Source of the DNA: Parcubacteria group bacterium
GTDB taxonomy: Bacteria; Patescibacteriota; Minisyncoccia; UBA10092
DNA: 64,000 bases
Assembly: GCA_016186325.1 (NCBI GenBank)
Contig: JACPLW010000012.1
Coordinates: 18,644-82,643 of the forward strand
Direction: 5' to 3'
Below the pieces are notes generated by a model. The model was not told the DNA's origin, did not search any database, and saw only the letters and a program-made list of their open reading frames with translations. A program made the translations under genes and the position numbers. Below are positions 11,024 to 41,179 of this stretch, piece after piece; positions within the stretch are counted from its first letter, which is position 1; each line of letters starts with the position of its first letter.

Positions 11024-11060
11024 ACCCCCCAACGCGAATGCGGTGGGGGACTTTATTTTT
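11024..11060 (+). terminator. intrinsic terminator after tRNA cluster (CCCCCCAACGC gaat GCGGTGGGGG + TTTATTTTT)
   Basis: Hairpin plus T-rich tract read directly. Confidence 0.7.
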
Positions 11061-12684
11061 ATGGAACTATTAAAATCGGGGTGTTTAAATAAATAAATTC
11101 AATTTTACCTTCCGATAATTTTTTATTTAATTCGTGAAGAAACGTTAAATCAAAATAAAGGGGAACAATAACGACATTATTTCTCTCTAATTTTATTTTA
11201 TCAACCCCGTTAGAAGTCGACAAGTCGTCAGACGCTGTCGGCGTCTTACTTCTAACGGGGTCAAATTCATCTGCTTTTACATAATTTACATTAGATTTTC
11301 CATAACTAAGAAAATATACCGTTTGCGCTGAAACTGGTAATCCGTTGCTTGTCTCTTTATCATCAGCGTGCCAAATAACATATTTAAAAACACTGTCCGG
11401 CAAACTATTTAAGTAGTTTGCGATTTCAATCTGGCCTTTGGAAAAAGCATCGGCAGTGCGAATATTTGAAGCCCACCTGATAAAATATTTGTTATATTCC
11501 GCGAATCCTATAAATAATAAAAAAACGATTAGCAATACAAAAATCTTTTTTTTAGTTCTTAAAAGCTGATGGTGATTCAAATATTTTTGGATTTTTTCCC
11601 AAACCCAAACTAATCCGATACCGGCAAAAACCATTGCCGCCGGCATAGAGCCTAAAGCTCGCAAAGCGTGAGGGTTGCCCTCGGTTGATAAAACATTTGG
11701 TAAAAGAAAAATCAAAAGCCATGCCAAAAGGAATTTTTCACCAAACCCCAAACGCTTAACACTAATACAGAATCCTATAAGAAACAGAATACCGACCAGC
11801 CAAAATAATTGCGGCGAACCGGCAAAATTATGCCGCCAGTTCAGGTCGCCGACAATATTAAACATTCCTATGGTTGCCACAGTGCTTATGGCCGCTGATT
11901 TGAGAGGACTATCTGCCGAAAAAATTGAAACTTGGCCGCTTCTTCCAAAAAAATCGCCCGGATTATTCAGAAAGTAAATTCCTATTGGCAGAGCAACAAT
12001 AAAAGCCGTAATCGTGAAAATCGCAAATCCCGGCCACATATTTTTTGCTCGGTGTTTTGTAAGATAAAGTATAAAAAATACCGCGGCTAAAACGGGCGCA
12101 AAGCGATATGAAATATAGGTATAAAACCCAAGACCAAACAAAGCTCCCGCTAAAACCAACATAATTATCGATGTCCGACATCGATAATTATTGATGTCCG
12201 ACATCGATAATTTAAATCCGCGTATTAAAAAATAGAAAGACCAGATTAAAAATGGCAGCATCAGGCCGGCGCGAAAACCCATACGGCTGAAATTTACGGC
12301 CCAAAAACCAACGGCCATAAAAAAACTTGAGGCCAGCGCTATTTCAACGCTAAATAGCAACTTAGTTAGAAAAAATAGCCCCAAAACTGCTAAAACGCCC
12401 GCTATAGCAGGGAATAGTCTTAGAACCCAGGATTCTATGCCAAAAAATTTTATTGCTAAAGCGTCAAGCCATATTATCATTCCTTCGCGGCCATTGTTAT
12501 TGGTATAAAAAACCTTAAATTCCCCGGTTTTAAGCGACAATAAGGCGTCGGCGCCATTCATCGCCTCATCTTGATAAAGGCCCGGCGGTATAACGTCAAA
12601 TTGCCAGAATCTGAAAAAAACCGCGATAGCGATAATTAACAATAAAATCGCCGCGTGCCTATGTTTATAAAATAATTTTGTCAT
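11059..12684 (-). CDS. glycosyltransferase family 39/83 (ArnT/PMT-like) polytopic membrane protein, paralog of 8868-10697
   Basis: 541 aa; 'YQDEAMNGADAL' after first TM, many TM helices; carries three in-frame repeat insertions (see repeats). Confidence 0.7.
   Translation of the reverse strand: MTKLFYKHRHAAILLLIIAIAVFFRFWQFDVIPPGLYQDEAMNGADALLSLKTGEFKVFYTNNNGREGMIIWLDALAIKFFGIESWVLRLFPAIAGVLAVLGLFFLTKLLFSVEIALASSFFMAVGFWAVNFSRMGFRAGLMLPFLIWSFYFLIRGFKLSMSDINNYRCRTSIIMLVLAGALFGLGFYTYISYRFAPVLAAVFFILYLTKHRAKNMWPGFAIFTITAFIVALPIGIYFLNNPGDFFGRSGQVSIFSADSPLKSAAISTVATIGMFNIVGDLNWRHNFAGSPQLFWLVGILFLIGFCISVKRLGFGEKFLLAWLLIFLLPNVLSTEGNPHALRALGSMPAAMVFAGIGLVWVWEKIQKYLNHHQLLRTKKKIFVLLIVFLLFIGFAEYNKYFIRWASNIRTADAFSKGQIEIANYLNSLPDSVFKYVIWHADDKETSNGLPVSAQTVYFLSYGKSNVNYVKADEFDPVRSKTPTASDDLSTSNGVDKIKLERNNVVIVPLYFDLTFLHELNKKLSEGKIEFIYLNTPILIVP
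11206..11260. repeat. 55-bp GC-rich palindromic element with CCCCGTTAGAAGT/ACTTCTAACGGGG termini, in frame in GT39 gene (encodes 'PVRSKTPTASDDLSTSNGV')
   Basis: Near-identical to tandem copies at 24924-25041; flanked by TCAA direct repeat. Confidence 0.8.
12161..12213. repeat. tandem 23-bp duplication of palindrome ATCGATGTCCGACATCGAT inside GT39 gene (encodes 'SMSDINNYRCRTSIIM')
   Basis: Units 12161-12183 and 12184-12206 differ at one base; period 23. Confidence 0.8.
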
Positions 12685-12713
12685 AATATGAGATGCTGGT
12701 ATAATGTTAACAT

Positions 12714-12911
12714 ATGAATACTGAACAAGAAAAACAACATGCCCCGGAAATCGAAGCTTTGGTCCAAATTGCTTTTGATAAGGGCATTGCCAAAGCTATT
12801 GAAGAGGCGAAAGCCAAAAATGATCCGCATCTCTTTGATGACTTTCACGACGCTTTGATTGACCGCTTTTATCAGAAGCTGGTTGAAGCGGGGAAAATAA
12901 CTAATAATTAA
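12714..12911 (+). CDS. hypothetical small protein (65 aa)
   Basis: ORF with TGgTATAAT extended -10 immediately upstream; no recognisable domain. Confidence 0.4.
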   Translation: MNTEQEKQHAPEIEALVQIAFDKGIAKAIEEAKAKNDPHLFDDFHDALIDRFYQKLVEAGKITNN

Positions 12912-12942
12912 CAGCTGGTAGTTTTATAGCTTACGGAATAAA

Positions 12943-15363
12943 ATGCTTTACTTATTTTTATTATTTATTTTCACAATCACCTTAATTTTGTGGCTGATTT
13001 GGTTTGTATGGAACAGAGCCTGGCAAAAGGGCATGATTTTTAGTTCATTAAACTATGTTTTGCTTGAAGTGCGCCTCCCAAAAATAATAGAAACTATTGA
13101 CAGCGCGAAAGAAAAAGAAAAATTGGCCGTAATGGAGCAATTCTATAATTCTTTAAACGCCATTCTGCCGCGAAAAAAAGGCTTTCTAAAGCCGAGGCCT
13201 TATTTGGTTTTTGAAATCGCGGTGCCGGAAAACGGCGAAGAAATCTTTTTTCACTTGGCAGTTCCCAAAAAATTCCTAAACACGATTCAAAGACAGCTTC
13301 AAGGATTCTTCCCGGAAGCAGAAATTAATGCCGTAAACGATTACAACATTTTTAACCGCAATGGGAAAAGCGTAGGATCAATCCTTAGGTTAAAACGGAA
13401 TTACGTTTTACCGTTTCAAACCTACAAAAAACTGGAAACCAGCACTTTGGGATTAATCACCAACGCCATTTCTCTGCTTGAGGCGAAAGGCGAGGGGGTT
13501 GCGATTCAAATTTTAGTGAGGCCGACAAGCGCTTCTTCAAAAAGCGATGCCTCAAAAATCATAAAACATTTATATTCCGGAAAACACCTGGACTCCGCTA
13601 TAGGCGAGTTGGATGACCCTCTCTCGTTTATAGACGCTATAAGAAATTTTTTTAATATAAAAAATTCCAAAGAAAAAGAAAAAAAACAAATACCGGAATC
13701 TCAAACTCCTTTAACGCCTCTTGCCAAGGATTTGATTGACGCCGTAGACAGCAAGGCAAAGCAACAGCTATTTGAAACTAATATCCGAGTTTTGGCGTCA
13801 GCCGAAACTGAAGAACGGGCCTTGCAGATTCTGTCAAACATAGAAAGCGCCTTTGCTCAATTTGAGGCGCCGGATTTAAATTATTTTTACAGTTACCGGC
13901 CCCAAAAAAATATATTAAAAAAATTAATTTATAACTTTTCATTCCGTTTATTCAACCCTCCGGAAACCGATTGGCTTTCCGGCGAGGAGTTAACCAGCGT
14001 ATTTCATCTGCCGATTGTAAAAATCGAAACTCCAAAAGTGAGGTTTCTTAAATCAAAAGCCGCGCCTCCGCCGGCAATTTTGCCGTCTGCCGGAGTAACT
14101 TTGGGCAAAAATGAATTCAGAGGCCAGGAGACGCTTATCAAATTAAGCCCGCTCGATAGAAGACGGCATTTATACGTTATCGGCCAGACCGGCACCGGCA
14201 AAAGCTATCTGTTAAGAAACCTCATCAAGCAAGACATCGACAGCGGTGCCGGCGTTGGCATAATCGACCCGCATGGCGATTTAGTAGAAGCAATTTTGGG
14301 GCTCGTGCCGCAATCGCGTCTTAATGATGTTATCCTGTTTGATCCTGCTGATACGGAATGGCCGATAGGTTTAAATCTTCTTGAAGCGTCTACGGCAACA
14401 GAAAAAGATTTCGCGATTCAGGAAATTATTGCCATTTTCCAAAAGCTTTTTTTGGCAGAACACCTGGGCCCTATTTTTGAACATTCAATGAGAAACGCGA
14501 TGCTTACTTTGATGGCCGATGGAGAAAATCCGGGCACTTTGGTTGATATCCCCAGAATTTTTACAGATCCGATTTTTGTCCGCCAGCTTCTTATAAAAGT
14601 AACCGATCCGTTGGTTCGCGATTACTGGGAAAAAGAAATGCTTAAAATGACGGAACAATATAAATCAGAGATGCTGGGATACTTAATTTCCAAAATCGGC
14701 CGTTTTGTTGAAAATTCAATGATGAGAAATATTATCGGCCAAACCCGGTCGGGTATTGATTTTGATGACGTGATAAATAACGGTAAAATTCTCCTGATTA
14801 ACCTTTCCAAAGGAAGATTGGGAGAAATAAATAGCGCGCTTTTGGGACTCATCATCACCGCCAAACTTCAAATGGCAGCATTTAAACGTGCCGAAGAAAA
14901 GAATGAGGAGATGAGGCGCGACTTCTACCTTTATATGGACGAATTCCAAAATTTCGCGACCGATTCTATTGCCACCACTCTTTCGGAAGCTCGAAAATAT
15001 CGCTTAAACCTTATTTTGGCGCATCAGTTCATTGCCCAGCTTACGGAAAAAATCCGCGATTCCGTATTTGGAAACGTAGGTTCAACCGTGTCTTTTCGAA
15101 TCGGACCCGATGACGCCAAATTTTTGGTCAAACAATTTGAGCCGGTATTTAACGAGTCAGATTTAATAAATATTGATAACCGCCATGCTTATGCCAAACT
15201 TCTTATCGGCGGCGCCACGACCACTCCCTTCAACTTTACAACCGAAACTGTCAAAGAAGGAAGTTTAGACGAAGCCGAGAAACTTAGGGAATTAAACCGG
15301 CAAAAATATGCCCGGCCTAGAACGGAAGTTGAAGAAATTATAAATAAGCGATTTAAACAATAG
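12943..15363 (+). CDS. VirD4/TraG/TraD-like type IV coupling-protein family ATPase (DUF87/TraM-recognition type)
   Basis: 806 aa; N-terminal TM, Walker A 'VIGQTGTGKSYLL', 'IIDPHGDL', Walker B 'FYLYMDEFQNF'. Confidence 0.6.
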   Translation: MLYLFLLFIFTITLILWLIWFVWNRAWQKGMIFSSLNYVLLEVRLPKIIETIDSAKEKEKLAVMEQFYNSLNAILPRKKGFLKPRPYLVFEIAVPENGEEIFFHLAVPKKFLNTIQRQLQGFFPEAEINAVNDYNIFNRNGKSVGSILRLKRNYVLPFQTYKKLETSTLGLITNAISLLEAKGEGVAIQILVRPTSASSKSDASKIIKHLYSGKHLDSAIGELDDPLSFIDAIRNFFNIKNSKEKEKKQIPESQTPLTPLAKDLIDAVDSKAKQQLFETNIRVLASAETEERALQILSNIESAFAQFEAPDLNYFYSYRPQKNILKKLIYNFSFRLFNPPETDWLSGEELTSVFHLPIVKIETPKVRFLKSKAAPPPAILPSAGVTLGKNEFRGQETLIKLSPLDRRRHLYVIGQTGTGKSYLLRNLIKQDIDSGAGVGIIDPHGDLVEAILGLVPQSRLNDVILFDPADTEWPIGLNLLEASTATEKDFAIQEIIAIFQKLFLAEHLGPIFEHSMRNAMLTLMADGENPGTLVDIPRIFTDPIFVRQLLIKVTDPLVRDYWEKEMLKMTEQYKSEMLGYLISKIGRFVENSMMRNIIGQTRSGIDFDDVINNGKILLINLSKGRLGEINSALLGLIITAKLQMAAFKRAEEKNEEMRRDFYLYMDEFQNFATDSIATTLSEARKYRLNLILAHQFIAQLTEKIRDSVFGNVGSTVSFRIGPDDAKFLVKQFEPVFNESDLINIDNRHAYAKLLIGGATTTPFNFTTETVKEGSLDEAEKLRELNRQKYARPRTEVEEIINKRFKQ

Positions 15364-15365
15364 AA

Positions 15366-16001
15366 ATGTTTTTTTCAAAAAAAGACTTTTGGTTAGCGGT
15401 TTTAGCCGGTGAAATTGTTGCCTGGCTCTCTTTACCAACTTTAAAAAATCTAAAAATTTTAGGCCTTCTTGCGGAGCGAGGAATTGGTTTAACCGGTTTT
15501 GTTTTTTTCTGGGCGATATTTATTCCGCTCTGTGCCATTGCCGGACTTGGCGCGTTTTATTTTTTAGCAAAATACAAAGAGCGGGTTGGTTTTTTTCAAC
15601 TTGGGAAATACGGCGTGATTGGGGTTTTAAACACTTTTCTTAACGCCGGAGTTTATAACCTTTTAATATTTATTACCGATACTTCAACCGGCATTACGGT
15701 TGATTTGTTTTTTGTGGCCGCCTTTATTGTCACCGTTATAAATAGTTTTATTTGGAACAAATACTGGTCATTTGAAGAACGGGGAACGGAAACAATTGCA
15801 AGTGAGGCATTAAGATTTTTTAGTGTTTCTGCCACCGTGGCGGTTATAAATATTGCCATTCTTCATGTGATTATAAACATTATTGGCACGCCAGCCGGAC
15901 TAGACTCCAAAATTTGGGCTAATATAGCGCTCGCTTTCACAATTGTTACGGCCTTCTTCGGCAACTTTTTCGGCTATAAATTCATCGTTTTTAAAAAATA
16001 A
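15366..16001 (+). CDS. GtrA-family membrane protein
   Basis: 211 aa, 4-6 TM; C-terminal half 'KYGVIGVLNTFLNAGVYNLLIF...SFIWNKYWSFEE...FGYKFIVFKK' resembles GtrA family. Confidence 0.55.
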   Translation: MFFSKKDFWLAVLAGEIVAWLSLPTLKNLKILGLLAERGIGLTGFVFFWAIFIPLCAIAGLGAFYFLAKYKERVGFFQLGKYGVIGVLNTFLNAGVYNLLIFITDTSTGITVDLFFVAAFIVTVINSFIWNKYWSFEERGTETIASEALRFFSVSATVAVINIAILHVIINIIGTPAGLDSKIWANIALAFTIVTAFFGNFFGYKFIVFKK

Positions 16002-16013
16002 CCCTAATAACCC

Positions 16014-17123
16014 TTGAACCAATCTTCTGATTTTTATAACCTCGGAATTGCGCCTAATATTTTAGAGGTGCTTAATAAACTTAACTTCAAGATTCCCACG
16101 CCTATCCAGGAAAAATCAATCCCCCTTGCAATAGAGGGAAAAGACATGATAGGTATTGCCCAAACAGGTACCGGGAAAACACTTGCTTTTGGCGTGCCAA
16201 TGATTCAAGCGGCCCTGCGCGGCAAAGAGGGACTCGTTGTACTGCCAACGCGAGAGCTGGCCTTCCAAGTAAATGAGGTCTTTCAAAAAATTGGGTTGCA
16301 TCTTGGTGTACGAACGGCAGTTTTAATCGGCGGCGAGTCAATCAACCGCCAGATTCAATCACTTCGCAAAAACCCGCAAATCGTAATCGGCACTCCGGGA
16401 CGGATTATTGACCATCTGGAACAAAAAACAATTTCGCTTGGATCGGTCGCTGTTTTGGTGTTAGACGAGGCAGACCGGATGCTTGATATGGGTTTTGCGC
16501 CGCAATTGAAACAGATACTTCAAACATTGCCGCAAAATCGGCAAACCATGCTTTTTTCGGCGACAATGCCCCAGGATATTTTTACTATAGCGCGAGCATA
16601 CATGAAACTTCCTGTTCGCGTTGAAGTGGCTCCGTCAGGCACTCCACCGGCAAAAATCACCCAAGAGCTTTTCTTTTTAGAGAAACAGGATAAACCGCGG
16701 CTTCTTAAAAAAATTCTTGATGAATATCGCGGATCAATACTGGTATTCGCACGCACAAAACACGGCGCCAGGAAAATTACGCAAGGTATTCGAACGCTTG
16801 GCCATACCGTGGCCGAAATTCATTCCAATAGATCGCTAAACCAACGCAGAGAGGCACTTAATGGATTTAGGAATGGGAAATATAGGATTCTTATCGCTAC
16901 CGACATTGCCGCCCGCGGCATAGATGTGAAGGGGATTGAACTTGTTTTAAACTATGACCTTCCTCAACATCCCGAAAATTATGTCCATCGCATCGGACGG
17001 ACCGGACGAGTAGGCGGCATCGGACATGCCATATCTTTCGCCACTCCAGATCAGAAAAATGACGTGAGGGGAATTGAGCGTCTCATTCGCGCAACACTGC
17101 CTGTCTCCAAACGCTACTCGTAA
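16014..17123 (+). CDS. DEAD-box ATP-dependent RNA helicase
   Basis: 369 aa; Q-motif 'FKIPTPIQ', 'AQTGTGKT', 'PTRELA', 'DEAD', 'SAT', 'ARGID', 'HRIGRTGR'. Confidence 0.9.
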   Translation: MNQSSDFYNLGIAPNILEVLNKLNFKIPTPIQEKSIPLAIEGKDMIGIAQTGTGKTLAFGVPMIQAALRGKEGLVVLPTRELAFQVNEVFQKIGLHLGVRTAVLIGGESINRQIQSLRKNPQIVIGTPGRIIDHLEQKTISLGSVAVLVLDEADRMLDMGFAPQLKQILQTLPQNRQTMLFSATMPQDIFTIARAYMKLPVRVEVAPSGTPPAKITQELFFLEKQDKPRLLKKILDEYRGSILVFARTKHGARKITQGIRTLGHTVAEIHSNRSLNQRREALNGFRNGKYRILIATDIAARGIDVKGIELVLNYDLPQHPENYVHRIGRTGRVGGIGHAISFATPDQKNDVRGIERLIRATLPVSKRYS

Positions 17124-17344
17124 GCAAACCTTAAATTGCCATCTTTGTTCAATCGAAAAAATAAGGTAATCGTAACCTTATTTTTATTTTTAAAAACTAA
17201 GCGAGAATTTCCAGCCAAGTTGGCTTTTTTACTGACAAACTTAACAATGCCTTCTTCTTTTGCCAGAACGAGACGTTTTGCTTCTACATCCAGTTTTTGA
17301 TTTAGCTCTTTTAGAGAAACGGGTAGAAACTTAGGTTTGTTCAT
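17114..17344 (-). CDS. hypothetical small protein (76 aa)
   Basis: ORF convergent with helicase; no recognisable domain. Confidence 0.35.
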   Translation of the reverse strand: MNKPKFLPVSLKELNQKLDVEAKRLVLAKEEGIVKFVSKKANLAGNSRLVFKNKNKVTITLFFRLNKDGNLRFAYE

Positions 17345-17399
17345 ATTGAAGCAATTTTACCACGCATTCATTAATAAAACAATTCCAAGGGCCTAATTT

Positions 17400-18362
17400 T
17401 TATTTCTTATTCTTAATGTCATTTAGGATCTTTTCTATATTTTTTATGCTTTTTTGGTCATTGATAGAGATCGCTATTGCATGAGGATCTATTTTTTTAA
17501 GCGCCAGTAATTTTTTATCAAGTTCTTCTGGTGTTACCAGGTCGCTCTTGGTAAGAAAAATGCGTTCTGGTTTTTTAAGAAGGGCCTTGTTCCAGGCGCC
17601 TAATTCTTTGCGGATTACCCTGTAGTCTTTTAAAGGAGCGGGGGATTCTGCTCTAATAAAATGGAAAAGAATATGTGTTCGCTCAATATGGCGCAGAAAC
17701 TTGATACCCAAGCCCCGGCCACTTGATGATCCCTCTATTAGCCCCGGAATATCCGCTAAGATAAGTTCGTAATATGCGCCTAAACTGGGTTCAAGCGTAG
17801 TAAATGGATAATTTGCTACTTTGCTTCTGGCATTAGTAAGCTTATTGAGCAGGCTTGATTTGCCGACATTTGGAAGCCCTATAAAACCGATATCGGCAAT
17901 GAACTTAAGCTCGAATCTGAACGCAAAACTCTCTCCCGGCGTACCCGGTTGAAATTGTGTCGGTGAAGTGTTGGTTGAAGAACGAAAATAAAAATTACCG
18001 TTTCCTCCAATTCCGCCTTTCGCGAGGATAATCCGCTCGCCGATCTTTTTAAAGTTAATTTCTTTGCCGCTTGTAAGATTGTGGGCCACGGTTCCTACCG
18101 GAAGTTTTAGGATGAGATCGCTTCCGTCGCGACCAACGCGAAATTGGTCACGGCCGGGACTGCCGTTTTCCGCGGAAAATTCTTTTTTAAAACGAAATTG
18201 CTGGAGCGCGGTAAGATCGGAGACGCCCATGCCCAAGACACTGCCGCCTTTACCGCCTCTGCCGCCAACCGGTCCCAAATTCATCTTATTTTTATTAAAC
18301 GCCACGGCGCCCTTCCCGCCATGTCCGGCGTTTATTTTTATTTCAACGTCATCAATAAGCAT
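17400..18362 (-). CDS. obg: GTPase Obg/CgtA
   Basis: 320 aa; Gly-rich Obg fold 'GGKGGSVLGMG...GGIGGNGN', G-domain 'GLPNVGKSSL', 'DIPGLIEG'. Confidence 0.95.
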   Translation of the reverse strand: MLIDDVEIKINAGHGGKGAVAFNKNKMNLGPVGGRGGKGGSVLGMGVSDLTALQQFRFKKEFSAENGSPGRDQFRVGRDGSDLILKLPVGTVAHNLTSGKEINFKKIGERIILAKGGIGGNGNFYFRSSTNTSPTQFQPGTPGESFAFRFELKFIADIGFIGLPNVGKSSLLNKLTNARSKVANYPFTTLEPSLGAYYELILADIPGLIEGSSSGRGLGIKFLRHIERTHILFHFIRAESPAPLKDYRVIRKELGAWNKALLKKPERIFLTKSDLVTPEELDKKLLALKKIDPHAIAISINDQKSIKNIEKILNDIKNKK

Positions 18363-18378
18363 TGATTTTAAATTCTAC

Positions 18379-18500
18379 AAAAAAACGGCGCGCCGGAAAC
18401 CGCTCGATGCGGTTTCCCGGCGCGCCTTGTTGCCGCGTTGCGCAGCGTTAGGAACTTTCCGGCATCATTATGGACAAGTCACCATGACCAGCCATTGATA
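18379..18500 (-). promoter_or_regulatory. GC-rich 5' leader of obg ending in a strong intrinsic terminator (candidate attenuator/riboswitch or sRNA)
   Basis: On minus strand: GGCGCGCCGGGAAACCGC aucgag GCGGUUUCCGGCGCGCC + U7 (plus 18379-18426) ~17 nt upstream of obg ATG; upstream CCGGAAAG can alternatively pair with terminator arm. Confidence 0.45.
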
Positions 18501-18536
18501 CCATCACTTATGATAAGTTAACATACACTATTATTT

Positions 18537-18565
18537 TTGTCAATATTTTCTTACTATGATATAGT
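18537..18565 (+). promoter_or_regulatory. promoter TTGTCA-N17-TATAGT for 18613 gene
   Basis: Hexamers at 18537-18542 and 18560-18565; GGGAGG SD precedes ATG. Confidence 0.5.
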
Positions 18566-18612
18566 ATGTATTAAAAAAAACAGCTCATTGAAATAGTTAT
18601 TGGGAGGCGACA

Positions 18613-19224
18613 ATGCGCGCAACCGTTTTCATTTTTGCTGTATTTATTTTTCTTGTAATCCCGCCTGTTTTCAGGCCTGAAATAGAAAATGCCGCCGATA
18701 TGCCGTATCGGCTTGACCAAAAATTTATTGAAGATATTTGGAAAAAAGTTATTCGGTTAACAAACGAAGAGGCAATAATTTTAAAAGTTGAGCCGGACAT
18801 TAAAGCGCCAAAAATAATATACATTAGCGAGCAACCGAGAGTTTCGAGACGGGGCCTACTTATTGCCGCAAAAATTACATATTATGTTGACAAAAAAATC
18901 TTGGATGAAGAAAAGATTCAAAAAGTGCTTCTGGACTATCCGAGGGTGATACGGATATATCCAGCGGCGTTTCTGCCGCTGGAAATGGCTGGCGAGCTGG
19001 TATATGGATTTATCGCTCAGGAATTCTTTCACGAAACATTGCTTCAACAATACGTTCTTCCGGATTATCACCATTGCGCGATGATTTATCGCGGCACGCT
19101 TCTTAAAGCGCTAATGTTTATAGACGGGCGCCTTGGTACGGGAAAGCGAATTACCGATACGGTTATCAAACATACCAAAGCTCAATGCGAAGAAGATTCC
19201 GGCGGCCGTATCCGTTTTAAATAA
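18613..19224 (+). CDS. hypothetical protein with N-terminal signal/TM
   Basis: 203 aa, hydrophobic N-terminus, good SD; no domain recognised. Confidence 0.5.
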   Translation: MRATVFIFAVFIFLVIPPVFRPEIENAADMPYRLDQKFIEDIWKKVIRLTNEEAIILKVEPDIKAPKIIYISEQPRVSRRGLLIAAKITYYVDKKILDEEKIQKVLLDYPRVIRIYPAAFLPLEMAGELVYGFIAQEFFHETLLQQYVLPDYHHCAMIYRGTLLKALMFIDGRLGTGKRITDTVIKHTKAQCEEDSGGRIRFK

Positions 19225-19284
19225 GCCCCAAATAATTTATATTTAGGGGATTTTTTTATATATAAATTATATTACTTAATTTAT

Positions 19285-19749
19285 TTATCTTCTAACGGGC
19301 CCCGGTTCTGAATAGGGGATTCTTTTTTCTGAATTCTCTAACGCGGTCTTAACATGATGCATCATGTTTTCAGGTAATTTTTTTATCGGGAACCATCGAA
19401 GGTCGTCGCATTTATCCGGCTCGTTTATTCTAACTTCTCCAAACCATTTTTTACACTTAAAAAATAAATCCAACCTTTCTCCGGTTTCATCGTGTTTTGT
19501 GCGATACATAGTATGAACCAGTATTAGATCTTTTGGGTTAATATCAATCCCTAATTCTTCTTTCATTTCCCTTACTAATCCACCGATAGGCAATTCTCCG
19601 GCTTCCACATGGCCAGCCGGAACAGAATACCAGCCATCATAGTAACCAGAACCTCGCCGTCGTCCAAGCAAAATTTCTTTTCCTTTTCGAAGGAACAAAT
19701 AAACCGCCGGCACTGCTTTATTTCTTTCTTTTGATATTTTTAAATCCAT
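19285..19749 (-). CDS. NUDIX hydrolase
   Basis: 154 aa; Nudix box 'GHVEAGELPIGGLVREMKEELGI'. Confidence 0.85.
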   Translation of the reverse strand: MDLKISKERNKAVPAVYLFLRKGKEILLGRRRGSGYYDGWYSVPAGHVEAGELPIGGLVREMKEELGIDINPKDLILVHTMYRTKHDETGERLDLFFKCKKWFGEVRINEPDKCDDLRWFPIKKLPENMMHHVKTALENSEKRIPYSEPGPVRR

Positions 19750-20348
19750 TGATTTTTAATTAAAAAATCCTTTACTTGAACAAAAACTTTTTCATGACCG
19801 GATGCATTAGGATGCAGGCCATCATCAAAATCCTCGTTTTCTAACAACTTGATATCTAAGAAAAGTATATTATTTTTATTGCAAACTTCTTTCATAATTT
19901 CGCTATATTTCTTTATATTTTCGTTAGTGTAGTAAATATCAATCCAGGGGACAGGCATTGTTTTAGATTCGTCACAATTCTTTAAATCCACAAAAACAAC
20001 ATTATTGGTTATTTTCTTAGCCCGCTTGATAATTTCTTCCAGGTTTTCTCTGAATTTTTCCGGAGTAACCAAGTAATTACCCGGTTTGTTTTCATAAGAT
20101 GCATCGTTTCCGCCTGTTTGGAATATTAAAGCATCTGCTTCTCTGATTTTTGCCTCATTTTCAAATCGTTCTAAAATTGTTTTGGTTGTTCCGCCGGAAA
20201 TACTGCAATTATAAACTTCTACATACTCGTCGCCGTCTCTTTTAGCGACATGAAACCATAGACGGTTTACCCAGCCGCCTTTTTCCAAATCCCACGCACC
20301 CCAAGCAGTGCTATCTCCGAATATACAAATTGATTTTGGTTTAGGCAT
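19740..20348 (-). CDS. SGNH/GDSL hydrolase family protein
   Basis: 202 aa; 'IFGDSTA' (GDS), 'QTGGND', 'DGLHPN' blocks. Confidence 0.8.
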   Translation of the reverse strand: MPKPKSICIFGDSTAWGAWDLEKGGWVNRLWFHVAKRDGDEYVEVYNCSISGGTTKTILERFENEAKIREADALIFQTGGNDASYENKPGNYLVTPEKFRENLEEIIKRAKKITNNVVFVDLKNCDESKTMPVPWIDIYYTNENIKKYSEIMKEVCNKNNILFLDIKLLENEDFDDGLHPNASGHEKVFVQVKDFLIKNQWI

Positions 20349-20373
20349 TGTTTTACGAGCTCAATTTTTATAT

Positions 20374-20781
20374 TTAAATTTTTGATAAATCGCCATTGAT
20401 TACACTTGGATTCATGCCGAGTAACTCATCAGTAAATATACAATCGGGAATTGGGTTAAAAAGAAAAATTTTTTTTCCACTATCAAAAGCCCGGAATACC
20501 TCAAGAAAAGTCGCGCCGCCAATATAATTTGATTGATTATTTTTATCAAAATTAAGCACTAAAATCGCATCATTTGCCAAAACTTTAGTATCTTGGTTTT
20601 TCAACATGTCGGCTTTCCATTTTTGATGCGCGTCGGGTCCGATTTCTTTCATTTCGTTTTCTTTCATAGGGTTGTCGTAACTGTTCGGTAATGTAACAAA
20701 GTGTCCTAGAGCTTCCAGTTTTTGTTTAATCAACCCAACCTTGTCGTAATTGTGTTTGCTGGCACAAATAAAAATTTTCAT
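20374..20781 (-). CDS. hypothetical protein (possibly nucleoside 2-deoxyribosyltransferase-like fold)
   Basis: 135 aa, overlaps SET gene stop by 4 nt; weak resemblance only. Confidence 0.4.
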   Translation of the reverse strand: MKIFICASKHNYDKVGLIKQKLEALGHFVTLPNSYDNPMKENEMKEIGPDAHQKWKADMLKNQDTKVLANDAILVLNFDKNNQSNYIGGATFLEVFRAFDSGKKIFLFNPIPDCIFTDELLGMNPSVINGDLSKI

Positions 20782-21311
20782 AGTTTATTGTTCATAATCA
20801 TTTTTTGAATTAGGGGATGAAAATGACCTTTGTATTTTTCTTGAACGCCAGGAATTTTCCAATCGTTTTCTGTTAGAATTTTTCGGCAATCTTTCGCACC
20901 GCAAAAACACGGCTCTTTATCGTCAGTGTATTCGCTATCTTCAAAATTCCAGGTACCTTGGTCTAAAGTTATTTCTTCTCCCGCTTCTATATCTCTTTTC
21001 GCGACAATTGTAACTTCGTCAATAAGCCAGGTATTGGCGTCGCAAGAATGATTAAGATTTTCGTCTAGGCTTTCTTGCGTATCGCTTTTTGGCAAAGCCA
21101 AATAGCTATTTTCATCCACTATCCAAACGGAACGGCTTCTGTAATTTCCAGAAAGTGCTTCTTCTTTTGAAATCAGCTCGCCTCCAAACTCCATAACCTT
21201 TTCTCCTTCCGAAATTTTTTCACCGGTAAAAACACCCTCGCCGTGAATAGGAGATTTGCCAGCTTTAAGTTTCGGATTGACCCAAGTGCGTGATAGATAT
21301 TGTTTTTTCAC
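20778..21311 (-). CDS. SET-domain protein (putative protein-lysine methyltransferase)
   Basis: 177 aa; 'NHSCDAN' (NHSCxPN motif), 'GEEITLDQG', post-SET Cys cluster 'CFCGAKDCR'. Confidence 0.8.
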   Translation of the reverse strand: MKKQYLSRTWVNPKLKAGKSPIHGEGVFTGEKISEGEKVMEFGGELISKEEALSGNYRSRSVWIVDENSYLALPKSDTQESLDENLNHSCDANTWLIDEVTIVAKRDIEAGEEITLDQGTWNFEDSEYTDDKEPCFCGAKDCRKILTENDWKIPGVQEKYKGHFHPLIQKMIMNNKL

Positions 21312-21721
21312 ATTTGTCGATTAATCATATCCGAATAATGTTCTATCATAAAATCGTGATAAAACTTATTATCGGAAATGTATTTGTAAACATTAGCCGT
21401 TTTTTCTGGCGATTCGTTGTTGAATTCGGCGCATAACTTATCAATTTCCTGCTCATTTTCAGGAGATAATCTATACTCTTTAATATTGCCGTCTTGGAAC
21501 TTAAATAAGAATATTATTTCCTTTTCGCCGATAATTTCGTTCCAAAAGCCATTTGTGAGTTTATTTTTTACAAGTTCAATATATTGAGGTAGTTTGTCCT
21601 CAGGAATTTTAAGCGAGCGATCGCCGTCAGTATCTATGTCTTCAATTTTAATATCCAAATCTTCCAATTCCTTATCTTCAATTTTTTCCGCTCCCATTAG
21701 ATAACTTAAATAATAAGACAT
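21308..21721 (-). CDS. hypothetical acidic protein (137 aa), first gene of the SET operon
   Basis: ORF overlapping SET gene by 4 nt. Confidence 0.45.
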   Translation of the reverse strand: MSYYLSYLMGAEKIEDKELEDLDIKIEDIDTDGDRSLKIPEDKLPQYIELVKNKLTNGFWNEIIGEKEIIFLFKFQDGNIKEYRLSPENEQEIDKLCAEFNNESPEKTANVYKYISDNKFYHDFMIEHYSDMINRQM

Positions 21722-21779
21722 GGTTTATTTTTTAATTTTATTACTAGGCATCTCAGTCATTTGACTTAGCATATGTTTG

Positions 21780-21850
21780 CTCGGGGACAGGGAATCGAAC
21801 CCCAATTAACGGCTTCAAAGGCCGCTGTCCGACCATTAGACGATCCCCGA
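21780..21850 (-). tRNA. tRNA-Gln (anticodon TTG)
   Basis: Minus-strand fold: acceptor TCGGGGA/TCCCCGA, anticodon loop CU-UUG-AA, T-loop TTCGATT, discriminator G; T-stem has two G-U pairs. Confidence 0.7.
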
Positions 21851-21884
21851 ATATTTATAAATTTTCAAACTTGTCTCTTATTTC

Positions 21885-22946
21885 TTACTTGCCCTCCGTA
21901 GCCTTGGCGAAGGAGAGTTCCTTACTACTTATTATCTCCACCGCCGCGAGTTCTATCGGCAAAGAGGGGATTGGTGAGCGCTTTATATCCTGCTGGGCGA
22001 TAAAAAGAATCTTAATCGCTTGGGCGGTTTTATCAAGCGGCCACGCTTCGGATTGTTTTTTTACCGTTTCAATTTGGTCCGGAGTGAGTTCTTGCACCAT
22101 TAGCTCTACAAGAGAAGAATCAACTTTAACAAGAAGAATTTTTCGGAAATGGTTTATTAACGATTTAGTAAATTCCTGAAGATCCGTTCCATCTTCGCAC
22201 AATTTTCCGACATAATCTATCGCTTCTTTGGGATTAACAGAGCAAAGGTGATCGGCCATTATTTTTACTTTTTCAAAATCAACCGCGCCTAAAAGTTCTT
22301 CTATATCTTGTTTCGTGATACTTTTTTCGCTCCAGTTTCTTAACTGTTCAAGCATTGATTCGGCATCACGATAGCTTCCTCCGGCATAATTGGCAATTAA
22401 CCTTATGGCATCATCATTAATTTTTATTTTTTCCGCTTCAATAATTTTTGAAAGTTTTTTCATGATTTCCAAAACCGTAAGCCGTCTGAAAGCAAACTGC
22501 TGGACGCGTGATAAAATGGTTTCCGGTACTTTGTGAGCTTCGGTTGTCGCCAGAACAAAAATTGCGTGAGCCGGCGGTTCTTCCAATGTCTTTAAAAGAG
22601 CGTTAAACGCTTCCTTAGTAAGCTGATGAACCTCATCAATAATAAAAACCTTATATTTTCCAGCAGTCGGCGCGAATTTTATTCCCTCCCGCAATTCTCT
22701 TATCTCATCAATGCCCCTGTTTGAAGCGGCATCAATTTCTATGAGGTCAAGGTCGGAACATTCAAGCGACTTTGCCAGAAGCCGGGCTATGGTGGTTTTC
22801 CCCGTGCCGCGCGGCCCGGAAAATAAATAAGCGTGGCCAACGCGATTAAGTTTCAAGGCATTGGTCAGAGTCCTTACGACATGCTCCTGCCCGATAACTT
22901 CACTCCATTCCTGCGGCCGATATTTTCTATATAAAACAAGATTCAT
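21885..22946 (-). CDS. dnaX: DNA polymerase III subunit gamma/tau (short form)
   Basis: 353 aa; 'YRPQEWSEVIGQEHV', Walker A 'GPRGTGKTT', 'IDEVHQL'; C-terminal tail 'SFAKATEGK' encoded by repeat element. Confidence 0.9.
   Translation of the reverse strand: MNLVLYRKYRPQEWSEVIGQEHVVRTLTNALKLNRVGHAYLFSGPRGTGKTTIARLLAKSLECSDLDLIEIDAASNRGIDEIRELREGIKFAPTAGKYKVFIIDEVHQLTKEAFNALLKTLEEPPAHAIFVLATTEAHKVPETILSRVQQFAFRRLTVLEIMKKLSKIIEAEKIKINDDAIRLIANYAGGSYRDAESMLEQLRNWSEKSITKQDIEELLGAVDFEKVKIMADHLCSVNPKEAIDYVGKLCEDGTDLQEFTKSLINHFRKILLVKVDSSLVELMVQELTPDQIETVKKQSEAWPLDKTAQAIKILFIAQQDIKRSPIPSLPIELAAVEIISSKELSFAKATEGK
21891..21917. repeat. GC-rich element GCCCTCCGTAGC..GCGAAGGAG(G) at 3' end of dnaX (encodes C-terminal 'FAKATEGK')
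   Basis: Family also at 25595-25630, 27070-27130, 36684-36710, 53349-53428. Confidence 0.7.
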
Positions 22947-22989
22947 ACGCGGTTTACTTTATCACAAAATTAGTATAAAGTAAAAAATA

Positions 22990-23283
22990 ATCCCCCACCC
23001 TTAAAGCATAGATTATGTTTTATGTTTATATATTAAAATCTAAAAAAGATGATAGTATCTATATTGGCTTTGCCCCAGATTTGAAAGCCAGATTTATAAA
23101 ACATAATCAAGGACTGGTTCAATCAACTAAAAATCTAAGACCATTGGAATTAGCATATTATGAAGCTTACAAATCTAAAAAAGACACTCTCATGAGAGAA
23201 AAAAGACTTAAACAATTTAAAAAAGGATATGCTTCGCTTAAAGGTCGAATAATAAACTCTTTAATGCTTTAAGGGTGGGGGAT
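22990..23283. mobile_element. 294-bp cassette: 20-bp perfect terminal inverted repeats (ATCCCCCACCCTTAAAGCAT / ATGCTTTAAGGGTGGGGGAT) flanking a GIY-YIG nuclease gene
   Basis: IRs at 22990-23009 and 23264-23283 read directly; miniature relative at 53936-54069 shares the outer 13 bp. Confidence 0.55.
23015..23272 (+). CDS. GIY-YIG nuclease family protein (YhbQ-like)
   Basis: 85 aa; 'FYVYILKSKKDDSIYIGFAPDLKARFIKH' GIY-YIG motif. Confidence 0.8.
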   Translation: MFYVYILKSKKDDSIYIGFAPDLKARFIKHNQGLVQSTKNLRPLELAYYEAYKSKKDTLMREKRLKQFKKGYASLKGRIINSLML

Positions 23284-23431
23284 GAAAAATTATTCGCGAA
23301 ACAACGCTGGAAAAGGCAAAACCGCTTTTAGGACAGGAGACAAATGGCGAGCAAGAAAAAATATAGTGGTAAGAGATATAAAAAGCATGCATAGAAGCAA
23401 GTCTCGACTGCCGCAATTAAAATCACAATAA
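23282..23431 (+). CDS. hypothetical very basic 49-aa protein; start codon overlaps right TIR (GGGTGGGGG acts as SD)
   Basis: MKNYSRNNAGKGKTAFRTGDKWRARKN...; below the ORF-track length cutoff. Confidence 0.3.
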   Translation: MKNYSRNNAGKGKTAFRTGDKWRARKNIVVRDIKSMHRSKSRLPQLKSQ

Positions 23432-23438
23432 AAATACC

Positions 23439-24290
23439 ATGGCTATCAAAAAAATAGGCCTAGCTTTAGGCGGCGGGGGAGCAAAAGGGTTTGCTCATAT
23501 TGGCGTTATTAAAGCGCTTGAAGCGGCAGGAATTAATATTGATTATATTGCCGGCACCAGTATGGGGGCTCTTATCGGAGGTTATTACGCCGCGACTAAA
23601 GATATTAAGACGCTTGAAGAATTGTCGCTCGGTATTAAAAAAAGCGACATTTTTCCCATCAGTGAAGTAATCCGCAGAAAAGACGGATCGCTGTTCCGGG
23701 GCGAATCAATAGTAAAACTCCTTGATCATCGCCTGTCTGGCATAAAAATTGAAGATTGTAAAATTCCTTTTACAGCCGTGGCTACTGATTTAAAAACTGG
23801 AGACGAAATAAAACTTAAAAGCGGAAGTTTAACAGACGCGATACGCGCAAGCATTGCCATACCTGTAGTTTTCAGTCCTGTAGAAATAGACGGGAGATTT
23901 CTTATGGACGGCGGCTTTTCAAATCCCGTTCCGGCCGATATCGTTAGAGAAATGGGGGCTGATATTGTAATCGCTGTTGATGTTTCCAGCCGTTGGATTA
24001 TGGCGCCTGACGAAATATTAAACACTCATGATATTTACTCTTTATTCAGTAATGCTTTATCGGTAATCGAGTATCAGCTTGCAAAAAACATTCTTAAAGA
24101 CGCGGATATTGTTATTCGCCCGCCGGTTTTAACCTACGACTGGATGGCATTTGATAAATCGGCCGAGATAATAAAAACCGGCCAAAAAGAACTGGAACTT
24201 AATCTTAAAGAAATAAGAAAAAAAACCGGTCATCATACCCCGCGCCGCACTACCCTTGAAAAGTTTTTTGACTTTATTATAAATAAATAA
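23439..24290 (+). CDS. patatin-like phospholipase
   Basis: 283 aa; 'GGGGAKG', 'GTSMG' (GxSxG), 'DGG'. Confidence 0.9.
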   Translation: MAIKKIGLALGGGGAKGFAHIGVIKALEAAGINIDYIAGTSMGALIGGYYAATKDIKTLEELSLGIKKSDIFPISEVIRRKDGSLFRGESIVKLLDHRLSGIKIEDCKIPFTAVATDLKTGDEIKLKSGSLTDAIRASIAIPVVFSPVEIDGRFLMDGGFSNPVPADIVREMGADIVIAVDVSSRWIMAPDEILNTHDIYSLFSNALSVIEYQLAKNILKDADIVIRPPVLTYDWMAFDKSAEIIKTGQKELELNLKEIRKKTGHHTPRRTTLEKFFDFIINK

Positions 24291-24302
24291 ATAACAATAA
24301 CT

Positions 24303-24917
24303 ATGAAATACGAACTGCCAAAACTGCCATATTCTTACGATGCACTAGAACCTTACATTGACACTAAGACAATGGAAATCCACCATGGAAAACACCATCA
24401 GTTTTATATTGATAAGCTCAACGCTGCTTTGGAAAAATATCCCGATTTAGCCGATAACCCCGCCCTTAAGCTTAAGAGCGGGGATAAAAAACTGGAGGAG
24501 CTTATAAAAGACCTGCCCAATTTAACTATGGTAGACGAAGCCGACAAAAAAGCGATTCATAACAACGGCGGGGGACACATAAACCATTCGTTTTTCTGGC
24601 AAATTATGGCGCCGCAAAAAGAAGTTGATGAAGCATTGTTTGAAGAGATTAAATCAACTTTCGGTTCGCCGGAAGAATTTAAAAAAATATTCAGCAACAC
24701 CGCCGCCACCCACTTTGGCAGCGGATGGGCTTGGCTGGCGCGCGACGAACAAAATAAACTTCAAATATATTCATTGCCAAATCATGATTTTCCTTATTTG
24801 AAAGGCCATCAGCCTCTTATAGTACTTGATCTCTGGGAACACGCCTATTATCTAAAATACCAGAACCGCCGGGCCGAATATATAGAAAATTGGTGGAATG
24901 TTTTGAAGTTATTATAG
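24303..24917 (+). CDS. sodA: Fe/Mn superoxide dismutase
   Basis: 204 aa; 'LPYSYDALEPYID..MEIHHGKHH', 'DLWEHAYY'. Confidence 0.95.
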   Translation: MKYELPKLPYSYDALEPYIDTKTMEIHHGKHHQFYIDKLNAALEKYPDLADNPALKLKSGDKKLEELIKDLPNLTMVDEADKKAIHNNGGGHINHSFFWQIMAPQKEVDEALFEEIKSTFGSPEEFKKIFSNTAATHFGSGWAWLARDEQNKLQIYSLPNHDFPYLKGHQPLIVLDLWEHAYYLKYQNRRAEYIENWWNVLKLL

Positions 24918-24923
24918 GGTTGG

Positions 24924-25041
24924 CCCCGTTAGAAGTCCGACAAGTCGGCAGACGTCGTCGGCGTCTTACTTCTAACGGGGTTGACCCCGTTAGAAGTCCG
25001 ACAAGTCGGCAGACGCCGTCGGCGTCTTACTTCTAACGGGG
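24924..25041. repeat. two tandem 57-bp GC-rich palindromic elements (CCCCGTTAGAAGT..ACTTCTAACGGGG) separated by TTGA
   Basis: Copies 24924-24980 and 24985-25041 differ at one base; second copy abuts the -35 TTGACA of the downstream promoter. Confidence 0.85.
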
Positions 25042-25069
25042 TTGACAGATTATGTAGATTTGATATAAT
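25042..25069 (+). promoter_or_regulatory. consensus promoter TTGACA-N16-TATAAT (near-twin of promoter at 8673)
   Basis: TTGACA 25042-25047, TATAAT 25064-25069; both promoters share 'tttgaTATAATg'. Confidence 0.7.
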
Positions 25070-25075
25070 GTAGGT

Positions 25076-25573
25076 AATGCTGGGAAACAGGCCGAATCCT
25101 GGTTGTAAGACAAGTTTCAGGTGCCTCGAAGAGCATGGACCTATCCCAGCAGCACATTTTTCCTTAACAAAGCCAAAAATCGGCGCGACAGTTCTGTAAC
25201 TGTCCAAATGTGCCGGAGACTAACCTTTGCGGTTTTGCCTCTGTCGCGCCGAACAAAATCCCGTTGCCACTGTCGCTGTCGCGACAGGGGAGACGCCTTC
25301 TTACCTAGCGTCTCGTGAAGCAACGGAACTAAAGTCCTGGCCACATGTCCATGCGGGGTTGGTGGTCCAGGAGCGGTGCCCTATCGCCACAAGTGAGATG
25401 GGCAAACCGATGGTAGTGAGCCTCTCGGTTAGTAATTCAACTCCTTCGCTGTTGACCTATGGTCCACGGTGAATGCGCCTCTTGGCACACCCGTGTAAAG
25501 GATGGCCGCCATGTGCCGTCTAACAGCGAAGATCGTTCCTGCCTGCGCGAGCTCACCGCGCAGGCCTTTTTTT
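25076..25573 (+). ncRNA. candidate ~500-nt structured non-coding RNA of unknown family
   Basis: GC-rich (~55%) island with multiple long-range complementary segments (TCGGCGCGACAG/CTGTCGCGCCGA, CCGTTGC/GCAACGG, GAGACGC/GCGTCTC), no convincing ORF, promoter and terminator on + strand. Confidence 0.5.
25541..25573 (+). terminator. intrinsic terminator GCCTGCGCG agctcacc GCGCAGGC + T7
   Basis: Read directly. Confidence 0.8.
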
Positions 25574-25633
25574 ATTCTTCTTAAAGAAGAATAACCCTTC
25601 CGTAGCCCCGCTTTTCGGGGCGAAGGAGGGTAC

Positions 25634-26491: not shown

Positions 26492-26586
26492 CCCGTTAGA
26501 AATCTATCTAGATTTTTCTTAATTATAAATACAATAGTAGTTGCTAATCTTAATTTAGTTTTATCTAATATAAAATTTCTAACGGG
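26492..26586. mobile_element. 95-bp AT-rich cassette with 12-bp TIRs CCCGTTAGAAAT/ATTTCTAACGGG between def stop and fmt start; flanking direct repeat ATGAA (start codon duplicated)
   Basis: TIRs read directly; same architecture at 29372-29471, 46605-46702, 49122-49218. Confidence 0.6.
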
Positions 26587-26591
26587 ATTCA

Positions 26592-29371: not shown

Positions 29372-29471
29372 CCCCGTTAGAAATCTAATAAATCTTATGA
29401 GATTTAGCAGCATGTTTATATTTTATATTTAAACTATGTTTGATTGGTTAAAAAATAAATTTCTAACGGGG
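29372..29471. mobile_element. 100-bp AT-rich cassette with TIRs CCCCGTTAGAAAT/ATTTCTAACGGGG upstream of rpmA; flanking direct repeat TTGA
   Basis: Read directly; member of the CCCGTTAGAAAT TIR family. Confidence 0.6.
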
Positions 29472-38343: not shown

Positions 38344-38356
38344 AAATTTACCATGC

Positions 38357-38557: not shown

Positions 38558-38602
38558 AAATTTATTTTTAATAATTTAAGTTGATCATATAACTAAAAAC
38601 GA

Positions 38603-39913: not shown

Positions 39914-40058
39914 AAATTTAATATTTTAATTCTGGCAAATATTTGGAGACTGATTTAAGACTAATTTTCCGGCTACATTTTATCTCTTTTATACTTTTTT
40001 GGCAAATTAAAAACTACCTCCGCCTGAATGGAGTCGGATTGGTAATTTGTAACTATTT

Positions 40059-41167: not shown

Positions 41168-41179
41168 TAAAATTACATT

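Follow-up and report, generated by a model that had tools for sequence, protein, structure and literature searches.

How does one short GC-rich palindrome come to stand twice in tandem between a sodA gene and a promoter, and once more inside the reading frame of a glycosyltransferase gene? The question is raised by a 64,000-nt stretch of contig JACPLW010000012.1 from a Parcubacteria group bacterium, referred to here as the window, in which the palindrome forms a 57-bp unit. We favor the reading, to which we assign a probability of roughly 0.8, that the 57-bp units are miniature inverted-repeat transposable elements (MITEs), that is, non-autonomous transposable elements, of a large superfamily defined only by its ends. 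As in MITEs, the units carry inverted repeats and a duplication of fixed length at their borders, are small, non-coding and multi-copy, and have empty orthologous sites.

A preliminary description of this DNA had placed a tandem pair with a TTGA spacer after sodA and against a promoter, and a further copy with TCAA flanks, read through in frame, within a GT39 gene. Both are present (Table 1). The tandem copies differ by a single base (T/C), and the second runs directly into the TTGACA box at 25042-25047. The GT39 copy is translated as ..D PVRSKTPTASDDLSTSNG VD.. within the open reading frame (ORF) 11059-12684(-). In the window, the 13-mer terminus occurs 15 times with at most two mismatches against 1.13 expected (0/100 shuffles had as many), and the 32-nt interior of the GC-rich unit occurs 3 times against 0 expected, which together exclude chance as the source of the repeats. 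Longer, AT-rich cassettes with the same ends are found in the window as well, and their interiors are unrelated to those of the GC-rich type. Counting both types, the 64-kb window has 7 intact copies, with the 10-nt core perfect at 14/14 termini. The proposed kinship of the two types is borne out, in that their termini are identical over this core and their flanks behave alike; a single mobilisation system for both would be the simplest reading. The lone arm that had been noticed at the end of a NUDIX gene matches TTCTAACGGG at 10/10 positions (19290-19299) and provides the C-terminal codons of that ORF (..GPVRR*). A decayed AT-rich copy of ~90 bp probably once ended here on its right side, for which the degenerate left end (TCCGTTTTAAAT, ~19211) is only suggestive.

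Shared ends, target duplications and empty sites

Two collections were compiled. For the genome set, one genome per species was scanned for CCCGTTAGAA, 31-91 nt and TTCTAACGGG, which returned at least 120 stretches; for the metagenome set, which covers the GC-rich subfamily, the pattern was CCCGTTAGAAGT, 8-38 nt and GTCTTACTTCTAACGGG, and at least 120 contigs were returned, with 104 non-redundant copies. All counts for either set are counts among the matches listed. The element has the consensus 5'-Y-CCCGTTAGAA-RT ... AY-TTCTAACGGG-R-3', plus a 4-bp duplication, and its terminal inverted repeats have a 10-nt core that extends to 11-13 nt. The Y next to the left core has a complementary R at the right in 126/134 copies of the genome set. 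Position 11, the sole base separating the AT-rich and GC-rich types of the window and the source of the one-base difference noted in the preliminary description, is polymorphic across the superfamily (A in 86 copies and G in 42 of the genome set).

The flanks are more telling than the number of copies. Of 136 copies in the genome set, 80 lie between perfect 4-bp direct repeats, and 19 more have a repeat with one mismatch; when left and right flanks were shuffled among copies, 8.9 perfect repeats were obtained, with a maximum of 19. The GC-rich subfamily in metagenomes behaves similarly, with a perfect repeat in 66/103 copies and one mismatch in 13 more. The commonest duplications in the genome set are TGAA/TTCA (22), TAAA/TTTA (21) and TCAA/TTGA (16); TTAA accounts for 0/80 perfect duplications there and 2/66 in the metagenome set. 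Further preferences of the genome-set flanks are T at -5/+2 and A or G at -2/+5. The TTGA and TCAA flanks of the window copies are 4-bp target-site duplications. At insertion, 4 bp are duplicated, mostly TNAA/TTNA, in a loose R-TNNA-Y context.

These ends also bring to mind integron attC sites or empty gene cassettes. The sizes agree (about 51-114 nt in the genome scan), integrons are abundant in the host phyla, and the ends, imperfect palindromes with GTTAGAA / TTCTAAC, resemble the attC core sites GTTRRRY / RYYYAAC. However, each core-like motif is off consensus at one position, and the motif order is reversed (GTT...AAC here vs AAC...GTT). This order and the variable 4-bp duplication contradict the identification as attC sites. 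The copies are moreover dispersed, in genes and at start codons, rather than placed after cassette ORFs, and no integrase was found in the window among essentially all ORFs of about 190 aa or more. We consider this identification hardly credible.

The family is not private to the source genome and occurs in several phyla. Hosts in the genome set belong to many Patescibacteria classes, Omnitrophota, Planctomycetota, Desulfobacterota and a few others; many of the metagenome contigs with the GC-rich subfamily come from groundwater metagenomes, and the family is also present on 11 viral contigs. Among named homologues of GT39 and fmt, the closest bear the label Candidatus Azambacteria or Parcubacteria group. 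Element sizes are 39-114 nt, interior GC varies from 15 to 82%, up to 7 termini occur in one locus of 7.7 kb, and nested insertions are found at three loci (L061, L010 and L108).

Orthologous sites without the element are available for both a GC-rich and an AT-rich copy. In the GT39 gene, the 20 residues PVRSKTPTASDDLSTSNGVD are missing in 20/22 aligned orthologues, and among 120 homologues there is only one other carrier, P0002, so that 118/120 are without the segment; the suggestion that the segment is an insertion is upheld. The 56-nt element and its 4-nt duplication add up to 60 nt, or 20 codons, which fits a precise insertion, and the DNA of L124 has the uninterrupted orthologous site. 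Had the segment been ancestral in GT39 and the element confined to these copies, a different origin would have to be sought; many further copies exist, and orthologues without the segment were found. In an AlphaFold model of the protein (mean pLDDT 68, pTM 0.72) the segment is predicted to lie in coil, at residues ~475-503, in a block with pLDDT 28-47. As a separate observation, the GT39 orthologues P0007, P0019, P0051 and P0022 have other in-frame insertions (alignment columns 223-250 and 353-363). That of P0051 is the 11-aa segment TPLKTEFLTGF from a 27-nt mini-element CCCGTTAAAAAC..GTTTTTAACGGG (L123 10815-10841), and P0019 and P0007 have a GxxPFVS... insertion with ends resembling another inverted-repeat element.

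At the def/fmt junction, L123 reads AATGAAAT (...AAAATGAAATATATATTTTTTGG), with the def stop overlapping the fmt start and no element, and the site is empty in L264 too. The window reads ...ATAATGAA-T[CCCG...CGGG]A-TGAAATTTATATTTTTTGG, i.e., AATGAA-[element]-TGAAAT, with TGAA duplicated; this AT-rich copy is a clean insertion. We note that fmt of the window (25634-26491) encodes 285 aa vs 313 aa in L123, ~30 residues fewer, with internal gaps after residue 38 and both ends intact.

The site between sodA and the promoter is represented in the metagenome contig L208, which is syntenic with the window at ~79% nucleotide identity. There, a single copy lies within a perfect duplication, TAG-GGAG-TTGA-[element]-TTGA-CAGATT, where the window has two. 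The 55-nt core of copy 2 is identical to metagenome copies in L138/L165 and matches the orthologous copy in L208 at 54/55 positions. At the unrelated loci L138/L165 and L197, a 55-nt variant lies exactly on TTGACA with a plausible -10 downstream. Originally, a -35 box TTGACA stood a few bases after the sodA stop codon, and the element inserted at its TTGA; because the target was the TTGA of this box, the duplication rebuilt it. Flanks that are target duplications thus explain both the survival of the -35 box and the capacity of copies to stack in tandem. The second copy is later than the first. Since the duplicated TTGA together with the terminal base of the element again forms a good target, this copy may have come from another insertion, at G-TTGA-C, or from slippage between the TTGA repeats.

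Hairpins, reading frames and gene starts

Members of the GC-rich subfamily are built on a common plan of terminal stem, hairpin 1 (typically CCGATGCG-loop-CGCATCGG), one base, hairpin 2 (AGACGCC-loop-GGCGTCT) and terminal stem. The predicted RNA fold of copy 1 has -32.3 kcal/mol (z = -6.4), and the window copies range from -31 to -33 kcal/mol with z from -6.3 to -7.3. Covariation was analyzed on 34 gap-free 63-mers. Both-sided changes occur at 10 base pairs, in 44 cells vs 9.4 +/- 2.4 in shuffles, and 95.6% of cells are paired vs 35-44% when the partners are slid. Mispairs are without strand bias (12 G:T vs 20 A:C), and this balance indicates a structure kept at the DNA level or on both strands; an RNA acting from one strand can be eliminated on the same count. 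In the superfamily at large the interior is free to vary, and in the GC-rich subfamily it forms two hairpins within the terminal stem; compensatory changes on both strands have maintained the resulting three-way junction. A search of Rfam gave no match at the gathering score, and only chance-level matches (E >= 0.24) with an E-value threshold. An intrinsic terminator was also considered and rejected, as the hairpin is followed by GTTGAC with no U-run and a terminator scan flags only the inner stem with a weak tail.

Such hairpins raise the alternative of a host-selected palindrome that only seems mobile and functions, for example, as a hairpin that stabilises or terminates transcripts, a protein-binding site or a DNA-uptake signal of naturally competent Patescibacteria. 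The compensated hairpins are in its favor, as are conservation above flank level at orthologous sites and the three independent 55-nt copies exactly at -35 TTGACA boxes; the 10-mer also resembles the Neisseria uptake sequence GCCGTCTGAA at 7/10 positions. However, single termini are hardly ever found, nearly all being paired in inverted orientation and accompanied by a duplication, and the same ends enclose unrelated interiors in several phyla. The hairpin has no U-tract after it, copies lie in both orientations within ORFs without strand bias, and close relatives do without copies with no visible consequence. A purely functional palindrome is, in our estimation, quite unlikely.

Under the MITE reading, copies would persist in compact genomes because they can be translated. 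On either strand, two of the three frames cross the termini without meeting a stop codon; the left terminus reads CCC GTT AGA (PVR) or CCG TTA GAA (PLE), and the right TCT AAC GGG (SNG) or CTA ACG GG (LTG). GC-rich copies translated in frame in long ORFs give PVRS...TSNG, and the PVR frame, in which interiors are depleted of stops, is open throughout in approximately half of all copies in either orientation. In the genome set, 22/137 copies are read through in a long ORF, and the core length is a multiple of 3 in 20 of these; for the GC-rich subfamily of the metagenome set the figures are 34/90 and 33, with 21 copies in one orientation and 13 in the other. Overall, the core length is divisible by 3 in 83/104 members of this subfamily, with sizes of 63, 66 and 60 predominating. 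The canonical 57-mer of the window, with a core of 55 that is no multiple of 3, is intergenic, and the GT39 copy is one base shorter and so fits the reading frame. GC-rich members, in which element and duplication together are mostly a multiple of 3, would sit in genes as short loop peptides. Either adaptation of the element or selective filtering of surviving insertions may account for this frame compatibility.

AT-rich members appear to be accommodated at gene starts. The preferred target R-TGAA matches ATGAA at the beginning of genes, and there are 31 such cases in which the start codon is restored by the duplication. A leader ORF runs through the whole element in 15/31 of them; its stop is either the TAA of the right terminus, which precedes the ATG by 4 nt, or a TGA that overlaps the ATG. 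Start-codon copies are open in the sense orientation in 17/31 cases vs 6.1/31 with interiors shuffled. At ATGA-type starts, the duplication would thereby restore the start, with the leader stop 4 nt before the ATG or overlapping it. Three AT-rich members of the window lie exactly on start codons (fmt, scpB and the class II aminoacyl-tRNA synthetase gene), and two of them split ATGA/TAATG stop-start overlaps, with the TGA of the leader ORF overlapping the restored ATG; the def/fmt and scpA/scpB copies are of this overlapping-TGA kind. The leader across the def/fmt copy has 34 codons, its terminal TGA overlaps the fmt ATG, and it is called by gene callers on independent Logan contigs. This arrangement suggests that the genes flanking start-codon copies remain translationally coupled through the element.

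Putative mobilising enzyme and age of the copies

A 4-bp duplication implies an enzyme with 4-nt staggered cuts, and with the duplication as the sole basis, a DDE-type transposase acting in trans would be the most likely candidate. Several results weigh against the MITE reading. No autonomous partner was found when terminus pairs 130-6000 bp apart with a matching duplication were sought in 255 loci (1.69 Mb) and the window; all that emerged were small copies, nested or next to each other, and a few pairs attributable to chance. The window contains no transposase or integrase by Pfam and NCBIfam, which covered essentially all ORFs of about 190 aa or more. About 30 genome matches could be chance (596 Gb x 61 spacings / 4^20), and some matches outside the Patescibacteria are without a duplication; with so many chance matches expected, the copy count alone proves little, and it is the flanks that carry the proof. 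Finally, copies seem older and better conserved than plain junk DNA would be. The GT39 copy is also found in P0002 (L122, 72% protein identity) at the same site and in the same orientation, and over its 20 codons the two genes agree at 87% of nucleotides and 85% of third positions; the corresponding values for the whole gene are 72% and 52%. Between the L208 copy and copy 2, 54/55 positions match, with flanks at roughly 87-89% identity, a figure read from the alignment. Most orthologous pairs are, in turn, subject to ascertainment bias.

The searches for an enzyme can be specified further. No transposase was found in the element-dense loci L249, L229 and L231, and when 903 ORFs were clustered all-against-all for recurrent neighbors, the largest cluster, from 8 loci, consisted of ABC ATPases. 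Partner candidates at L203 and L242 were dismissed since the enclosed genes are lectin-like, GIY-YIG or NTP-transferase genes and none is a transposase. Likewise, inverted copies 2.7 kb apart in L018 are part of ~330-bp inverted repeats and do not delimit a transposon. These repeats (2046-2369 and 4832-5155) each contain a 92-nt family member and surround a gene for a 686-aa Big_5 surface protein, a segment that may be invertible or recombining.

Another mode of movement is conceivable, in which palindromes of the REPIN or repetitive extragenic palindromic (REP) type are moved single-stranded by a single-copy HUH/Y1 transposase and kept for long by the host lineage. Palindromic hairpins conserved on both strands and persistent, conserved orthologous copies would agree with it, and 4 independent loci contain Y1_Tnp/REP_Tyr_transpos-like genes, in one case at a distance of 79 nt from a copy. 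Yet these genes are flanked by other hairpins (GGAGGTTGAACCTCC, CTTGGAAACCCCGTTTCCAAG and others) and not by CCCGTTAGAA termini, and their Pfam and NCBIfam scores are below curated cut-offs; on both grounds the Y1/RAYT genes were rejected as the mobiliser. Y1 transposition proceeds without target duplication, where a variable 4-bp duplication is clear here, and many copies are intragenic, which REPs are not. We think it very unlikely that the family moves in this way. The IS200-like Y1 genes, of the REP-associated type and ~220-250 aa (L203 4071-4724; L229 7048-7803; L090 3508-4242; L188 334-1056), are an observation in their own right: each has a short hairpin peculiar to it on either side, e.g., GGAGGTTGAACCTCC, and they represent a separate small mobile element in these genomes.

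The age of the copies is best followed in the GT39 pair. The window and L122 copies each have a 54-nt core, of which the first 15 and last 22 nt are identical, and hairpin 2 has been altered by compensatory pairs (AGACGC.../...GCGTCT vs AGTTGCC/GGCAACT). The segment is in the top 4% of 20-codon windows of the gene in DNA identity and in the top 2.5% at third positions. A neighbor-joining tree leaves the sister status of the two carriers unsettled, and orthologues that look closer than P0002 are without the copy. Possible histories are an early insertion that was later lost precisely, recurrent insertion at one hot spot, and conversion between copies. Nine further orthologous pairs show an element no less conserved than its flanks, in a comparison biased by a search pattern that fixes 29 positions; since the ends have to be perfect to match this pattern, the GT39/L122 pair alone escapes the bias. 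Constraint at orthologous sites thus appears, from these alignments, as a real but unproven signal.

Taken further, the same observations could describe a long-lived palindrome system under selection across several phyla and served by an enzyme unlike known insertion sequence transposases. This proposal builds on exact ends at orthologous sites over ~30% host-gene divergence, on the compensated hairpins and on the tuning of length and frame to start codons and coding DNA; we regard it as an improbable, though not fanciful, extension. If it were true, possible roles would include reversible gene interruption, translational coupling, and a DNA-uptake or recognition signal in competent ultra-small bacteria.

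Other features of the window and comparison with known systems

Downstream of the promoter at 25042-25069, the stretch 25070-25575 (+) has ~500 nt without an ORF of at least 100 aa, and no other 2 kb of the window is as GC-rich as those around it. The stretch closes with a strong intrinsic terminator (GCCTGCGCG...CGCGCAGGC + T7; 25541-25575). L208 retains the promoter and the 34-nt terminator (100% identical), with a body that is ~70% identical where aligned. An Rfam search of the stretch found no family, even at E < 5, and to judge from these features it looks like an unannotated structured RNA gene. A second, unrelated family of GC-rich palindromes (..GCCCTCCGTAGC-n-GCGAAGGAGGG..) is present at 21874-21919, 27074-27119, 36667-36712 and 25598-25635; it has a GTAG motif, as do REP sequences, and some copies overlap ORF ends. 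Within the scpA ORF 46705-47508(-), a perfect 24-bp tandem repeat GTCGAACCACTTGTGGTGAGCAAA is present in at least 3 copies (46841-46921). Other repeats, inverted and direct, are those at 53917-53955 / 54050-54088, with ATCCACAAAGGGTGGGGGAT arms 94 nt apart, and those containing TTGCTATAGCAAG upstream of two genes (56199-56256 / 56811-56862). An AT-rich island at 38000-43400 (GC 0.335-0.35) may be acquired DNA; genes in and next to it are listed in Table 1.

Table 1. Positions of the elements, their flanking duplications and further features in the window
Feature	Position	Strand	Size	Remarks
GC-rich element, copy 1	24924-24980		57 bp	Termini C-CCCGTTAGAAGT / ACTTCTAACGGG-G, with two hairpins between them
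GC-rich element, copy 2	24985-25041		57 bp	
TTGA between tandem copies	24981-24984			Target duplication common to both
TTGG	24920-24923			Degenerate left target duplication; TTGA at same place in syntenic relative L208
GC-rich element in GT39/PMT_2 gene 11059-12684(-)	11205-11260		56 bp	One base shorter than the 57-bp copies
TCAA target duplication of GT39 copy	left 11201-11204, right 11261-11264			
Sigma-70-type promoter	25042-25069	+		TTGACA, 16 nt, TG-TATAAT; 12/12 consensus; first four bases TTGA are the right-hand duplication
AT-rich member	26491-26587		97 bp	def/fmt stop-start overlap; duplication TTCA (TGAA on gene strand)
AT-rich member	29372-29471		100 bp	TCAA duplication
AT-rich member	46604-46703		100 bp	scpA stop / scpB start; duplication TTCA; TGA of leader ORF overlaps ATG
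AT-rich member	49121-49219		99 bp	Start codon of class II aminoacyl-tRNA synthetase gene; duplication TTCA
Probable decayed AT-rich copy	19210-19299		~90 bp	Right terminus intact; left end degenerate
NYN-domain protein	37855-38424			
AT-rich island ORF	38603-39913		436 aa	No Pfam or NCBIfam match
LexA-like repressor	40574-41167			
N6/Eco57I-type methylase	41180-42721			

Patescibacteria genomes are tiny, densely packed and usually described as poor in mobile DNA. In the window, copies of a mobile element average roughly one per 9 kb. The element would survive by being readable, as short peptides in proteins (GT39), at split stop/start junctions (def/fmt, scpA/scpB) and beside -35 boxes that stay intact. 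The same 10-13-nt ends in four phyla suggest a shared transposase or DNA exchange between groundwater lineages. The cross-phylum ends, the tuning to reading frames and the apparent long-term conservation are unusual. There are practical consequences as well: copies break short-read assemblies, and Logan contigs terminate within them; they cause spurious "insertions" in protein alignments and added leader ORFs reported by gene callers. In the searchable literature, neither 10-mer was found in a relevant paper and no paper links MITEs or palindromic elements to these phyla; absence there is no proof of novelty, but the MITE family is apparently undescribed so far.

Among known systems, classical MITEs such as the Neisseria Correia elements and cyanobacterial Nezha share with the family inverted repeats, a target duplication, a non-coding interior, many copies, insertions beside promoters and at the starts of genes, and now and then copies in tandem or nested in one another. 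Correia elements have a TA duplication and 26-bp ends, in place of the 4-bp duplication (TNAA) and 11-13-bp ends of the present family. Families of MITEs described so far usually belong to one lineage and to a known insertion sequence, while here the same ends occur in several phyla around diverse interiors. Transposons of the IS1380 family and the piggyBac superfamily resemble the present family in a 4-bp target duplication and in ends starting with CC(C). Compared with CCCGTTAGAA here, piggyBac starts CCCTAGAAA and ISEcp1 starts CCTAGA. The target here is TNAA, not TTAA, and neither the window nor the 255 loci yielded an IS1380-like or piggyBac-like transposase bounded by such ends. IS1380 serves as the prokaryotic outgroup of piggyBac (PMC10813416). 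By analogy, we treat the resemblance to this group as a lead only. With REPIN/REP and RAYT systems, the family shares hairpin-forming palindromes, long persistence and diversity around a conserved recognition part; unlike the family here, REPs are extragenic and without target duplication.

In behavior, the family resembles the Rickettsia palindromic elements. These, too, are short palindromes dispersed in a small genome, which lie in frame within genes, where they add a short peptide in a tolerated region, and also between genes. The hosts here are Patescibacteria, Omnitrophota, Planctomycetota and Desulfobacterota, not Rickettsiales, and the elements are smaller (39-114 nt), with sharp 11-13-bp inverted repeats and a clear 4-bp duplication. 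By this analogy the family would behave like the Rickettsia palindromic elements and yet belong neither to them nor to the Correia-type MITEs.

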